Sequence record: OM355495.1
Source: Escherichia phage ZH4
Strand: one strand, 5' to 3'
DNA: 39,496 nucleotides
Shown here: piece by piece, positions 4,601 to 14,370 of the stretch
How positions within the stretch are numbered: the first letter of the stretch is position 1
How the letters are laid out: each line of letters begins with the position of its first letter
Made by a program: the position numbers and the translations under genes
Notes under the pieces: model-generated
Databases searched by the model: none
What the model saw: the letters and a program-made list of their open reading frames with translations, nothing else
Told to the model about the DNA's origin: nothing

Positions 4601-5998
4601 ACGTGTCCTAGGATTCAGAGGGTTCTCACCAATCAGGATTGAACCATCTTCGAGTCGTACACTACCCGGCTCGTTCGGAACGTCAGCGAACCTAACTCCT
4701 TGATGACTAAAGGTCTGCTCACCTTCCTGAATAGGGAGACGAGACAGGTCCTGACCGTCAACGTTACGGGCTGTCTCGCGAGCTTCCAGACGTGTAGCTG
4801 GACCAGCGAACTCGTTAGTGTTACGACCTAAGGCTCTGCCTAAGCCATCAGCGATAGCAGTCATACCACCACCGAAGAGAGCACCACCAAGGATAGCTTC
4901 AGCCACATGAGCGTCACCACCAGCCACTGAGGTACGGGCCATCTCAGACACACCAGCCAGTGCTCCAGTTTGAGCAGCCACGGTGAACATCTTGTTTACC
5001 AGCTTACCCCCTTTACCAACCTGTCCAGCGATAGGAACGTAGGTCAGAGGGTCTACACCAGCACCAATCACACCAGCAGCTAACTGGGCACCAGTCCCAG
5101 CCTTGGCCTTCTCTTGGTCCAACTTCTGGTTCTCAAGAGCCAAGTTAATAAGCTCGGTCAGGTTCTGAGGAGACCCGCCAGTAAGGACCCCATAATACTG
5201 AGGCAGAACCCCAGCGTTACGAATCTGGTCCAGCTCCTCGCGAGTCCACTTATGGTTGTTCCATCTGGTAGGGTTAAACACATCGCCAATGACATCCAGT
5301 GAGTCCTCGGTCTGACCAGCGCGGATAGCCACGCCGACCATAGAGTTCTTCACTTCAGCTTCTGTAGCCGAACCGAAACCGAACCATGTAGAGCGGTCCT
5401 CTCGTTCCTGCATGGTATCGCCGGTAGCCTTATAGAACATCTCACCGAACGATTCGTTGGGAGCTTCAGGTGCTTGACCCTCAATATTCAGACCAGCAGC
5501 GGTCGGAAGGTTCTCACCCAGAGCTACTTTAGGTTTAGCCTTGAGTCCTTCCGTGAGTGCGTCAAATACGTTAGCGCTTACTGGTGGAGTCTTTGGGCTA
5601 ATGCCATTGAGTGCTCGTGCGACTCCCTTCTGATAGACTTCAGGGTCGTACCGGGAGCCTGTCTCATGGAAGCTGATAGCTTGAGCCAGAGAAGACAGGG
5701 TGTCAGGGTCCGAAAGGTCGAGACTCTGGGTAGCTGGAATACCAGTTGCAGCCACCACTGAGTCAATATAAGCCTTAGTGTCGTTCTCGTTAGGAGGCGC
5801 CCATCGGTTGATAATCTTCTCGATGGAGTCATAGCCTTGGCGACCGTAACTTAATAAGTTCTTACCCAAGGCCCGCACACCAGACTCTGGGCTATCAAAT
5901 ATTACAAACTCCCCATCATCGCCAATAGCTCCTTCCCATTGGTCCTTAGACTTACGGATATTTCCGGGGTTCGAATTTCTTATACCACGTGTTGCCAT
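1610..5998 (-). CDS. Internal virion protein D (T7 gp16 homolog), 1462 aa, with non-T7 N-terminal domain
   Basis: Track ORF; central and C-terminal regions align with T7 gp16 (e.g. MENPAMFG...SIFPGSRFKGTYVPVVY, NAYMGVQNLTEIGGM). RBS GGAG upstream of ATG. N-terminus (MATRGIRNSNPGNIR...) does not resemble the T7 SLT domain. Confidence 0.9.
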   Translation of the reverse strand: MATRGIRNSNPGNIRKSKDQWEGAIGDDGEFVIFDSPESGVRALGKNLLSYGRQGYDSIEKIINRWAPPNENDTKAYIDSVVAATGIPATQSLDLSDPDTLSSLAQAISFHETGSRYDPEVYQKGVARALNGISPKTPPVSANVFDALTEGLKAKPKVALGENLPTAAGLNIEGQAPEAPNESFGEMFYKATGDTMQEREDRSTWFGFGSATEAEVKNSMVGVAIRAGQTEDSLDVIGDVFNPTRWNNHKWTREELDQIRNAGVLPQYYGVLTGGSPQNLTELINLALENQKLDQEKAKAGTGAQLAAGVIGAGVDPLTYVPIAGQVGKGGKLVNKMFTVAAQTGALAGVSEMARTSVAGGDAHVAEAILGGALFGGGMTAIADGLGRALGRNTNEFAGPATRLEARETARNVDGQDLSRLPIQEGEQTFSHQGVRFADVPNEPGSVRLEDGSILIGENPLNPRTRQVFDEVIEPERAAAGVNLGGLTEIGLKLLRSENPEIRGVAADLVRSPTGMQSGASGKIGTTASDVFERLRAVDHRFYNDIDDAVTEALKDPYFQTAFWRDNSALREDVYKRVALAIEDGSGNLKTELTPGELKVYDLLKNQFDAKREMMENPAMFGRTDAQSIFPGSRFKGTYVPVVYSSQMKQLYIKELGSPEALQEAIKKSWLTSYASRPEVKARVDEMLAEQLRSSQPAAGKTVGTAPNPRSSVNTARDQMKLDDAATQAIDKVAELKDVLTNAEKRVADREKKLQNSKDRLASHEAKLKELEEKLAAKPKSKTIPVKIESRKQMIETQKSHVRINTERLDYMKGQADKVRDRITKATTEAEAAAAAAKGQKTAVDDQAPTAGETTSGNASQAAPEVTMDMVEKYANDKAYGISHTEQFERSSVMEENINGLVGLENNNFLEARNLFDNDMEIILPNGKAFSVNSLREWDMDKIVPAYNRRVNGDIAIMAGTGKTTKDMKDLVETMMNKAGDDGKLKGEVSTLRDTLKILTGRARRDGADDAAFATVMRTMTDLSFFAKNAYMGVQNLTEIGGMLARGNVRALLHGVPIFRDLAFRNKKVGASEIKDLHNVIFGKELDDSIRPSKQDVIDRLRAYSSLSKPTATALGSAKYYTGELAVRSPFTKVLNGTTNYLLDAGRQGFLSDIVEHSLTGSKRKFDDRWLKTAGISDEQWKGIKSLIRESVTRGPDGKYTIKDKKAFSQDPRAMDLWRMGDTIADETLLRPHKLSNMDAKAYGPLAKTVLQFKNFVIKSINGRTMRTFYNATKNNRAMDAALSTVISMGLAGIYYMAQAHVKAYAMQDGRDRDYLKQALDPTMIGYAALSRSSHLGGPLGVANILGGIAGYEDTKLLRSSILPRSPTEKPERAIAYGAATSDPVMNIVGNFLEQVPAFGYAANVGASAYNLAGYLKSDTRVNERDYMTGMYNTFRELVPNDPITQKLLLGTFEEQGIHIKD

Positions 5999-6429
5999 GT
6001 CTTTCTCCTTAAGATATTTCTAATAGAAACCGTACTCACTCCATAGGAACTAGCTAGGAATGAAACCTTTAGGCCGCTAGACCGTATGTTCTTCACATCA
6101 GTCTCTGTCAATTTGGATACTCCTATTGAGCTTCCAGACGCTTGACGACCTCTTTCCACCTTGTCTTTAATGTTGTCAGCCTGAGTTCCAGCCTCAAGAT
6201 GGTCAGGGTTTATGCAGGACGGATTGTCGCACTTATGGCGTACAACATACCCTTCAGGTATAGGACCACTGGCAAGCTCATAAGCTAGTCGATGTGCTCT
6301 ATACTTAACTCTGTTAATCATTATCGTACCATAACCGTCAGAATCTACGGTCCCAGTGAATCGGATACAGCCAGAGCTTTCAGCTACTGACAATTCTGCC
6401 AGTCTCTCACTGGCTGTCCCGTTCTTCAT
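5980..6429 (-). CDS. HNH homing endonuclease (intact), 149 aa
   Basis: HNH motif VVRHKCDNPSCINPDHLEAG plus a C-terminal DNA-binding-like segment KLTETDVKNIR...STVSIRNILRRKTW; RBS GGAG upstream; inserted between gp15 and gp16. Confidence 0.85.
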   Translation of the reverse strand: MKNGTASERLAELSVAESSGCIRFTGTVDSDGYGTIMINRVKYRAHRLAYELASGPIPEGYVVRHKCDNPSCINPDHLEAGTQADNIKDKVERGRQASGSSIGVSKLTETDVKNIRSSGLKVSFLASSYGVSTVSIRNILRRKTWQHVV

Positions 6430-12213: not shown

Positions 12214-12441
12214 TTAAATCATACTCATTAGGACGTATCCTTCAGCGATGTCACCAACGTCAGCAATGTGGATAACCTTACGAGCTACCTGTTGTCCAGT
12301 ATACCCGTTGTCCCACTCATTCAGGATAAGCCAATCGCCAACCTTAAAGTCCCGGTCGTTAAGTCTCAGCTCTGCTGTCTTTAGACCTAGCTGTACCGGA
12401 CCAAAGTGCTTGCGGTGAATCTTCAGGTTGTGACTAGCCAT
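12214..12441 (-). CDS. DUF3850 / ASCH-PUA-like small protein (75 aa), inserted between genes 11 and 12
   Basis: Sequence LKIHRKHFGPVQLGLKTAELRLNDRDFKVGDWLILNEWD...GYTGQQ fits the DUF3850 pattern as I remember it; RBS GGAGG; start overlaps gp11 stop (TAATG). Confidence 0.65.
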   Translation of the reverse strand: MASHNLKIHRKHFGPVQLGLKTAELRLNDRDFKVGDWLILNEWDNGYTGQQVARKVIHIADVGDIAEGYVLMSMI

Positions 12442-13007
12442 TAGTCCCTCCCGATGTCAGACATCATGTTGTAGCGACCAGTGTCCATCTCGTACTCCAT
12501 AACCTGCTGATAGAGTTCTGCTTCCTGCTCACGAAGGTATAGCTCTGACTCTGGGCTACCGAAGAACTTAGCGTTGAACTCTCGGCTAGCTTTAGTGACG
12601 ATGTAGTCCCTGAAGACCACAGGCATCTCGGAGAATGGCTTCATCTCCACAAGCTCTACCGTGATAGGGTCGGTGAAAGTGGTTGACTGAGTGGACAGGT
12701 CGTACAGGTATCCACCCATGTTGCTGTAGTAGCTGGTGGCCCCAGCAGTCATTATCCGAAGGTATGACGGAAGGAATCGAATCCTATTGTCTTGGACATC
12801 AGGTGTCAGGACAGCAGCTTCGTTGATGTTAAAGTTCCAGCCTTTAGCTTGGACCTGACGATTGACACGATGTAGGATACGTTGAGCGTTCGAGACGTCA
12901 GCGTTCCCCTCGTCAAGCTGTAGGACTGCTGGTTCACCGATAGCAGCTAACATATCGTTGATGGCATCTAAGTCATCGTTAGCATTCAGTGGAATGTATT
13001 GAGCCAT
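12441..13007 (-). CDS. Tail tubular protein A (T7 gp11 homolog), 188 aa
   Basis: Similarity to T7 gp11 (AIGEPAV..., NAQRILHRVNRQVQAKGWNFNI, YIVTKASREFN, MEYEMD.G.YNM); RBS AGGAG. Confidence 0.9.
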   Translation of the reverse strand: MAQYIPLNANDDLDAINDMLAAIGEPAVLQLDEGNADVSNAQRILHRVNRQVQAKGWNFNINEAAVLTPDVQDNRIRFLPSYLRIMTAGATSYYSNMGGYLYDLSTQSTTFTDPITVELVEMKPFSEMPVVFRDYIVTKASREFNAKFFGSPESELYLREQEAELYQQVMEYEMDTGRYNMMSDIGRD

Positions 13008-13026: not shown

Positions 13027-13068
13027 GCAAAAAACCCCTCAAGCACCCGAAGGCACCCAAGGGGTTTC
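13027..13068 (-). terminator. T-phi-like intrinsic terminator after gene 10 (minus sense AACCCCTTGGGTGCCTTCGGGTGCTTGAGGGGTTTTTTG)
   Basis: GC-rich hairpin with UUCG loop followed by a U6 run, immediately after the predicted 10B stop; closely resembles T7 T-phi (CCCCTTGGGGCCTCTAAACGGGTCTTGAGGGGTTTTTTG). Confidence 0.85.
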
Positions 13069-13070
13069 AA

Positions 13071-14245
13071 TTAGTTGTTGGACTCAGCCAGTTTAGCGGC
13101 CCTGTTCGCAGCACGAGTACGCGCAGCTTTCTGTTGGGGAGTTAGAGTCTCCTCTTCAGGTGCAGCCGCTACTGTAGCGACGTTAGGTTGGCTAAAGGTG
13201 CTTACGCCGCTGGGCTGAAAACCAGTGCGCCAGCCGCTTCAGGACGCAGACCACCGTGACCCATAGCGTACTTACCAACAATCAGGTCGCCCTGAGCATC
13301 TACGTCACGGTCACGTTCCAGCGCCAAGTCACGCAGCTTCACAGTACCCACAGCAGAACGGTGAGAGAACAGACCAACAACGTTGTCCAGAGCAACTTTA
13401 ACGTCACCAGTAGCAGTAGCCGGGAATGCATGCTTCTGACCAGTCGCAATAGTGATACCATCATCACCACGAGTTTCACCAGCACCACCCTGAGTCAAGT
13501 GTGGAACTTCAACAACAACGAAGCCCATCACGTTACGGATGTTACCAGTCTCTGGGTCAATCAGCGCAGCATAGTTAGCAGCGTTCGGCATCAGAGCCGC
13601 GAGGATTGCAGAGTAGTTGTCCGGCGTGGTGTAGAAGTAACGGTCGCCAGCAGGAACGTAGTTGGAGGTCAGCTTCGCACGAGCAATGGTCAGTTGACCG
13701 ATGATTGCTTCACCCAGTTTAGCCGGGGTGTCGAGATCAGCTTTCTTACCAACTTCCAGTACGGACGCAGTACCCAGACCAGCGATGTTCTCGTTGGATG
13801 CAGCCGGTAGGTTACACAGGATAGCCATTTCAGCCAGCACCGCACCATCAGCAGCGATAGCCAGAGCTTCACCCAACTGGTTGGAATACTCGCCAGCCAC
13901 GTCATAGTGGTTCATCGCGTCTTCAATGTCGAAAATCATCACATCGGCAGTCAGCAGACCATCAATGGTAATCACTTTCTCGGTATGTTTGATACCTTTA
14001 CGCTTATCGGACAGTCGCTCACCCGGAGCCAGATACACACCAGAGGTGCGACCCATGACCGGGAACTGAGCAGACTTACCGTTCTGAATGGTACGGACAA
14101 TATGCTTGTCAGCAGTTACAGAGCGGCGAGTGAATGCGGTCAGGACTTCACCAGCAAATACCTTCAGGAACAACGCAAGAGCGTCGGAGCTGGATTTGCC
14201 TTTACCTTGGTCTGTACCAATTTTCTGACCCGGAACGTTTGCCAT
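13071..14245 (-). CDS. Minor capsid protein 10B, predicted by -1 frameshift near the end of 10A (about 395 aa)
   Basis: Slippery GGTTTTC at 13217..13223, five codons before the 10A stop. The -1 frame stays open for 52 codons (QPSGVSTFSQPNVATVAAAPEEETLTPQQKAARTRAANRAAKLAESNN) to TAA at 13071..13073, just before the terminator. Mirrors T7 10A/10B. Confidence 0.7.
13202..14245 (-). CDS. Major capsid protein 10A (T7 gp10A homolog), 347 aa
   Basis: Very strong similarity to T7 gp10A (GKSAQFPV.GRT, HTEKVITIDGLLTADV, AALMPNAANYAALIDPE, HRSAVGTVKLRDLALER, KYAMGHGGLRPEAAGA); RBS GGAG. Confidence 0.97.
   Translation of the reverse strand: MANVPGQKIGTDQGKGKSSSDALALFLKVFAGEVLTAFTRRSVTADKHIVRTIQNGKSAQFPVMGRTSGVYLAPGERLSDKRKGIKHTEKVITIDGLLTADVMIFDIEDAMNHYDVAGEYSNQLGEALAIAADGAVLAEMAILCNLPAASNENIAGLGTASVLEVGKKADLDTPAKLGEAIIGQLTIARAKLTSNYVPAGDRYFYTTPDNYSAILAALMPNAANYAALIDPETGNIRNVMGFVVVEVPHLTQGGAGETRGDDGITIATGQKHAFPATATGDVKVALDNVVGLFSHRSAVGTVKLRDLALERDRDVDAQGDLIVGKYAMGHGGLRPEAAGALVFSPAA
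13217..13223 (-). other. Putative -1 programmed ribosomal frameshift site (GGTTTTC) for capsid 10B
   Basis: Heptamer in codons CTG GTT TTC, same position and sequence class as the T7 gene 10 frameshift site. Confidence 0.65.
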
Positions 14246-14347: not shown

Positions 14348-14370
14348 TCTCCCTATAGTGATAGTTTAGT
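14348..14370 (-). promoter_or_regulatory. Phage RNAP promoter (phi10-like), minus sense CTAAACTATCACTATAGGGAGA, +1 near 14353
   Basis: Perfect consensus copy upstream of the major capsid gene. Confidence 0.85.

Follow-up and report, generated by a model that had tools for sequence, protein, structure and literature searches.

Gene 10 of Escherichia phage ZH4 very probably encodes two capsid proteins, 10A and 10B, from a single mRNA, with 10B arising by a -1 ribosomal frameshift at the slippery heptamer G_GUU_UUC. Judging from the sequence and its relatives, we put the probability of this reading at about 0.9. The window, by which we mean the whole 39,496-nucleotide stretch of record OM355495.1 that was analysed, is by its sequence a T7-like phage of the genus Kayfunavirus (K1F group). 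Its capsid region is 96-97% identical to those of TM1, ST31, SH3, Penshu1 and others, and its nearest matches, PH1061/ST31, are about 94-95% identical over 25 kb, with ST31 reaching 98.8% locally. The genes of the window lie on the minus strand. The features used in the argument are listed below, each with the evidence behind it.

13202..14245, minus strand: gene 10A, major capsid protein, 347 aa, zero frame (open reading frame, Pfam and PDB matches)
13217..13223, minus strand: slippery heptamer G_GTT_TTC, candidate -1 shift site at Val342-Phe343 (phase check and T7 alignment)
13071..13217, minus strand: predicted 10B-specific -1 segment, 48 sense codons and TAA (translation and homology to the T7 tail)
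14348..14366, minus strand: putative phage-RNA-polymerase promoter (phi10 equivalent), AACTATCACTATAGGGAGA, upstream of gene 10 (motif copies)
13029..13068, minus strand: T-phi-like intrinsic terminator, hairpin and U6 (folding and alignment with T7 T-phi)

The zero-frame product is well defined. The 10A frame ends at TAA 13204..13202 and encodes a protein with a computed mass of 36.3 kDa, and its exact sequence is on record as the Escherichia phage ZH4 capsid protein. It matches PF21703 (Gp10A-like, E = 6e-106) in Pfam, as well as the solved T7-like capsid chains 9vvq (E = 2e-215), 7y23 and T7 10A 2xvr. Gene 11 starts at 13007.

Near the end of gene 10A, GGTTTTC is found in the phase G|GTT|TTC; the gene strand has no second copy. 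Nine in-phase slippery heptamers occur in the 32 long open reading frames, and GGTTTTC alone lies within 10 codons of a stop. The sequence-only reading had placed a frameshift feature at 13071-13223, and these limits are exact, corresponding to the heptamer start and the -1 stop; the feature itself is real, but it has to be assigned to the minus strand. Its position five codons before the 10A stop was roughly right, as the TTC is codon 343 and is followed by four sense codons (S P A A) and then TAA. In the -1 frame, the sequence after the slip reads QPSGVSTFSQPNVATVAAAPEEETLTPQQKAARTRAANRAAKLAESNN and ends at TAA 13073..13071. This amounts to 48 new codons and not to exactly 52 as had been claimed; the 153-nt span 13223..13071 holds 51 triplets, including GGT, TTT and the stop. 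The predicted 10B, complement(join(13071..13217,13217..14245)) with C13217 read twice, would have 391 aa and a mass of 40.9 kDa, a net gain of 44 aa over 10A.

The -1 frame is open from 13238 and overlaps 10A by 12 codons (13238..13202). From 13238 to 13071 it contains no ATG, GTG or TTG, according to both the codon list and the list of minus-strand open reading frames. Since the -1 frame has no start of its own, if it is expressed, ribosomes must enter it from gene 10A. As had been noted from the sequence, it ends just before the T-phi-like terminator, the hairpin of which begins 3 nt past the -1 stop. The 10B tail is first Ala/Pro-rich and then carries a basic segment, LTPQQKAARTRAANRAAKLAE, which is probably helical. 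Two other routes past the 10A stop were considered and rejected: zero-frame readthrough of the TAA would reach the next stop 10 codons on, and the +1 frame runs into a stop within about 3 codons of the end of 10A.

A Pfam scan of the 48-aa tail, which is short and of low complexity, matched zero families, and the matched PDB chains are all of 10A length, with no 10B tail among them. A 63-aa query, made of the tail and the 15 residues that close the 10A body, found zero homologues in a protein database, and the exact 391-aa 10B is absent from a collection of 15 billion proteins in which 10A is present. Empty protein searches are expected because gene callers miss frameshift products, and they are silent on novelty.

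An open -1 frame of this length had also been described as unlikely by chance. Taken alone it is only weakly so, since dinucleotide shuffles of the 144-nt segment were stop-free in frame in 7.7% of cases (p about 0.08), and 48 stop-free codons are found at 13% of all non-gene-strand positions; that argument placed too much weight on the length of the open reading frame. The heptamer and the open frame jointly are rarer than the open frame alone. A null built by measuring, for every gene of the window, how far the -1 frame stays open beyond the stop was useless, with 15 of 32 genes having at least 43 open codons, and many of these values (150-1457 codons, in our reading) arise because the next gene lies in that frame. 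The real support is comparison with relatives, not the length of the frame. That an open frame is not rare by itself favors a different account, in which the -1 frame is a remnant, left by decay or arisen by chance, the heptamer serves only as Val-Phe coding and there is no meaningful 10B. Condron, Atkins and Gesteland, who reportedly described the -1 programmed ribosomal frameshift of T7 gene 10A/10B in 1991, are said to have found T7 10B dispensable, and this would also suit a remnant. We nevertheless consider a remnant very improbable, given the pattern of divergence in the tail, the survey of related loci and the K1F results described below.

We aligned the DNA of the window with that of Penshu1, K1F and T7. 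The window's CTGGTTTTCA falls on T7 GTGGTTTTCA, the annotated join point of T7 10B, and the terminators of the window and T7 also align, including the stem CCCC. T7 gene 10 has the same heptamer, G_GUU_UUC, at homologous Val-Phe codons, with 4 sense codons before the 10A stop in both phages. The proposal that 10B arises here as it does in T7 is supported: the heptamer matches the experimentally established T7 shift site base for base and is equally far from the 10A stop, and the tails are homologous. In both phages the -1 stop abuts a homologous T-phi with its CCCC, and the tail core L-T-P-x-Q-x-A-A-R-T-R-A-A-N is invariant in the window, T7 and two surveyed relatives, L011 and L029.

The divergence of the tail points to selection on a protein. 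Between the window and T7, differences at the three codon positions of the -1 frame number 11/13/32, with pS 0.90 and pN 0.26. The corresponding values are 13/14/24, with pS 0.69 and pN 0.34, against L011, and 13/16/29, with pS 0.74 and pN 0.34, against L029. Because the differences are periodic and fall mostly at third positions, it is the encoded peptide that has been selected; neither an RNA element nor chance accounts for the pattern, and the tail is under purifying selection at the peptide level in the -1 frame. A third-position bias with pN well below pS in all three comparisons is not what a decaying or chance frame would leave.

The same data bear on whether the conservation past the 10A stop could belong to RNA in place of a coding sequence, whether as a 3' UTR structure, a processing site or a terminator accessory. 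The 206-nt region does fold somewhat better than its shuffles (z = -2.2), and the terminator CCCC of T7, a distal element more than 200 nt 3' of the site, matters for frameshifting there through a long-range effect that is unexplained (PMC5009743). However, an RNA element would not yield three-base periodicity, saturated synonymous change and a conserved peptide, and LTPxQxAARTRAAN is kept across genera at saturated synonymous divergence. Local folds also differ among the window, K1F and T7, and a C-to-A difference at the corresponding position in K1F would break up the 8-bp hairpin seen in the window's 206-nt fold. We find a noncoding explanation barely credible.

If 10B is made, the shift might still occur at another point of the 12-codon overlap, because slipping anywhere between 13238, where the -1 frame opens, and the 10A stop would yield nearly the same protein. 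Candidates include single-tRNA slippage on C_CCA at Pro345, where AGC_CCA lets CCA re-pair as CCC, and slippage of RNA polymerase on T4. Against this, G_GTT_TTC is the sole element of the overlap common to T7 and the window, with T7 differing after it (AAAGTGGAG). A run of four Ts is far too short for productive transcriptional slippage. We therefore regard a shift at another site, or during transcription, as unlikely by a wide measure, and G_GUU_UUC remains the preferred site.

The heptamer is not of the perfect X_XXY_YYZ form found in canonical sites of the dnaX, IS or retroviral type. Because it reads G_GUU_UUC, re-pairing in the P site from GUU to GGU would be imperfect. The T7 gene 10 frameshift likewise takes place on a G_GU variant of X_XXY_YYZ (Atkins et al. 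review, PMC5009743). The T7 site is GGTTTTC, with a native efficiency of about 10%, and the short sequence alone gave less than 1% in a reporter (Slootweg et al., PMC1635266), a weakness that would fit a heptamer kept only for its Val-Phe codons.

Stimulatory structure was sought downstream. In the 70 nt that follow the heptamer, folding gave z = -0.08 for the window and +0.95 for K1F, with no proximal structure that was significant or conserved, and the window thus has no stable structure of the canonical type 5-9 nt past the heptamer. In T7, by contrast, a hairpin starts 4 nt past the site (-25.8 kcal/mol, z = -2.5), and hairpins 4-6 nt downstream of the heptamer have z between -2.5 and -4.2 across T7, L011, L029, L023 and L070. 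The missing proximal stimulator is a further point in favor of a remnant. The K1F clade may use a stimulator different from that of T7, and the strongly conserved basic helix of the tail may have a specific function, even though T7 10B is regarded as dispensable; we think both ideas rather doubtful.

The terminator itself is strong. Its hairpin spans 13068..13031, with CCCC at 13064..13061 paired to GGGG at 13038..13035 and U6 at 13034..13029, and has an energy of -25.2 kcal/mol (z = -4.7). The CCCC aligns with that of T7 and lies 153 nt 3' of the shift site, compared with more than 200 nt in T7. As it is built into the terminator stem in any case, its presence is silent on a role in frameshifting. 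At the other end of the putative transcript, the promoter-like motif beginning AACTATCACTATAGG has 7 copies with at most 3 mismatches, all on the minus strand, where 0 were expected (1592, 9800, 14348, 15344, 18171, 29775 and 35640); the gene 10 copy is the query sequence itself and has 0 mismatches by construction. Similarity to the T7-group promoter core suggests that AACTATCACTATAGGGAGA functions as a promoter. The start site reads GGGAGA in the copy before gene 10, and the other copies diverge there.

To place the site in a wider context, 74 related viral loci were surveyed and scored for the motifs GGTTTT[CT], A_AAG and XXXYYYZ only. An in-phase GGTTTT[CT] is present in 27 of the 74, and in 26 of these 27 the -1 frame continues for at least 42 codons past the 10A stop; the loci are phylogenetically related and the counts are not independent, but the pattern recurs across lineages with unrelated tails. 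This co-occurrence of heptamer and extension is difficult to reconcile with a remnant. The single exception (L009; IMGVR_UViG_2974615076_000001, 2540-2550) has a 1-nt deletion in the 10A stop, which changes TAA to TAG and puts the tail out of the -1 frame. Its tail is otherwise near-identical to that of the window, with 2 further substitutions. The sequence may contain an assembly error or may reflect natural loss of 10B, and a tail out of frame is what a decaying extension could look like.

No slippery motif was found in 35 of the 74 loci, which typically read CTG GTC TTC, and in 27 of the 35 the -1 frame is at most 31 codons. -1 frames of 217-225 codons in motif-less loci run into gene 11. 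A crude search found a terminator-like G-run and T-tract in 26 of the 35, between 36 and 133 nt past the 10A stop and mostly at about 40. A further 12 loci have A_AAG-type or AAAGGG[GC] sites, 10 of them with tails of 86-177 codons. In this group only the tail of L035 was scanned, which contains a Big_2 domain, and the rest of the group looks alike by eye. Pfam identifies Big_2 in the tails of L028, L035 and L039. In loci that have both a tail and a terminator-like G-run, about 35-46 nt separate the -1 stop from that G-run. Judging by these sequences, tails seem to be interchangeable modules inserted after the 10A stop and ahead of the terminator.

The survey also turned up several variants of this arrangement. 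Two loci with capsids 78-79% identical (L026 and L027) have a near-cognate C_GTT_TTC (CTC GTT TTC) with a 91-codon -1 tail, so the codon context of the P site is not strictly conserved where the tail is kept. In L014-L023, L070, L074 and L075, a beta-rich module of about 88 codons without a Pfam hit lies past the heptamer; its carriers are Kayfunavirus capsids about 95% identical to that of the window. Other lineages have one Big_2 Ig-like domain (L028; L035, L042, L044, L048, L049, L051, L053, L057, L061 and L065), mostly at A_AAG-type sites, and the 177-codon tail of L048 looks by eye like two tandem copies. In two metagenomic T7-like contigs, L039:1247-2680 and L054 (IMGVR_UViG_3300034349_000001, 3300034127_000003), a 471-codon open -1 frame lies behind an in-phase G_GTT_TTT. 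It contains Big_2 (Pfam E = 5e-11), followed by about 390 aa without a Pfam hit, in which motifs resembling those of SGNH esterases can be seen by eye (FEGDSLT, GTNNY, DGTHSN). If this is true, these contigs would encode a capsid subunit that displays an enzyme by way of a frameshift.

We infer from this comparison that slippage does occur in ZH4, and propose the following model. The mRNA would probably start at the phi10-like promoter and end at the T-phi-like terminator. Most ribosomes would stay in the zero frame and stop at TAA 13204..13202, producing 10A. A minority, holding Val-tRNA in the P site and Phe-tRNA in the A site, would slip one base 5' on G_GUU_UUC; Phe-tRNA would re-pair from UUC to UUU, Val-tRNA would re-pair imperfectly from GUU to GGU, and decoding would resume at CAG. 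Slipped ribosomes would translate a further 48 codons in the -1 frame, as far as TAA 13073..13071, producing 10B. Such a protein would have the full HK97-type capsid body plus the tail, and is predicted to co-assemble as a minor subunit of the shell. For a T7-type frameshift, 10B would be expected as a minor component of the virion, at about 5-10%.

Two other open reading frames of the window, both on the minus strand, were noted during the analysis. One, at 5980-6429, is inserted between genes 15 and 16; it encodes a 149-aa HNH_3 homing endonuclease (Pfam E = 2e-16) and shares 19 nt with the start of gene 16. K1F lacks a gene at this place, and gp16 has 1462 aa in the window versus 1295 aa in K1F. 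The other, at 12214-12441 between tail genes 11 and 12, encodes 75 aa with a DUF3850/ASCH domain, and the RefSeq record of ST31 names it 'RNA-binding protein'.

K1F, the type species of Kayfunavirus, provides the closest experimental parallel. Its heptamer and flanks are identical to those of the window, the terminator is the same, and the tail matches at 47 of 48 residues, with RAAK in one and RADK in the other; outside the tail, the last residue of 10A differs (A versus E). According to Moller-Olsen et al. (2018, PMC6277420), a -1 frameshift in K1F gene 10 adds 44 triplets, equal to the net gain of 44 codons calculated for the window. In the same study, GFP fused to the 3' end of the -1 frame gave stable phage that were reported to be fluorescent (PMC6277420), and a GFP-EGF fusion behaved likewise, with 26 copies of g10b quoted per head (Williams et al. 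2023, PMC10367136). The fluorescence reported for phage preparations with an in-frame fusion, in a relative with so nearly the same tail, argues against a frame without a product.

Database records reflect this only in part. The K1F RefSeq record annotates 10A alone. In Penshu1 (MK903281), QEG09807.1 is a 'minor capsid protein' given as a -1-joined CDS of 1175 nt and 391 aa. The join uses the same site, and the terminator behind the CDS is annotated too; the Penshu1 tail is identical to that of the window, and the joined annotation is based on similarity only. Penshu1 differs in having an extra small open reading frame between the terminator and gene 11. Among four Kayfunavirus feature tables, the joined CDS appears in that of Penshu1 only. 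The 347-aa zero-frame product is often named 'minor capsid protein' or '10B' (OM867676, PQ133619 and others; PDB 9vvq), and these names are a propagated mislabel of 10A. The feature is thus already known for the family, for the genus and for essentially the same sequence, and it opens no new biological question. Its main value is for annotation, as most GenBank records of the genus list 10A only or mislabel the 347-aa 10A. The C-terminus of 10B is also a natural display site on T7-like heads, and has already been used as such in K1F.

Compared with T7, to which the capsid identity is moderate (E = 2e-147), the window has a shorter tail, with 48 new codons and a 10B of 391 aa versus 56 codons and 398 aa, and the first half of the tail is not conserved between the two. 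The T3 extension is Ig-like and that of T7 is not (PMC5009743). The window's tail is not of the Ig-like (Big_2) kind: among the surveyed relatives, capsid extensions of the T3 or Big_2 type mostly combine A_AAG-type sites with a folded Ig-like domain, whereas the window combines GGTTTTC with a short tail. The feature is best regarded as an ordinary member of the T7/K1F family of 10A/10B frameshifts, already described and already annotated in a near-identical relative.
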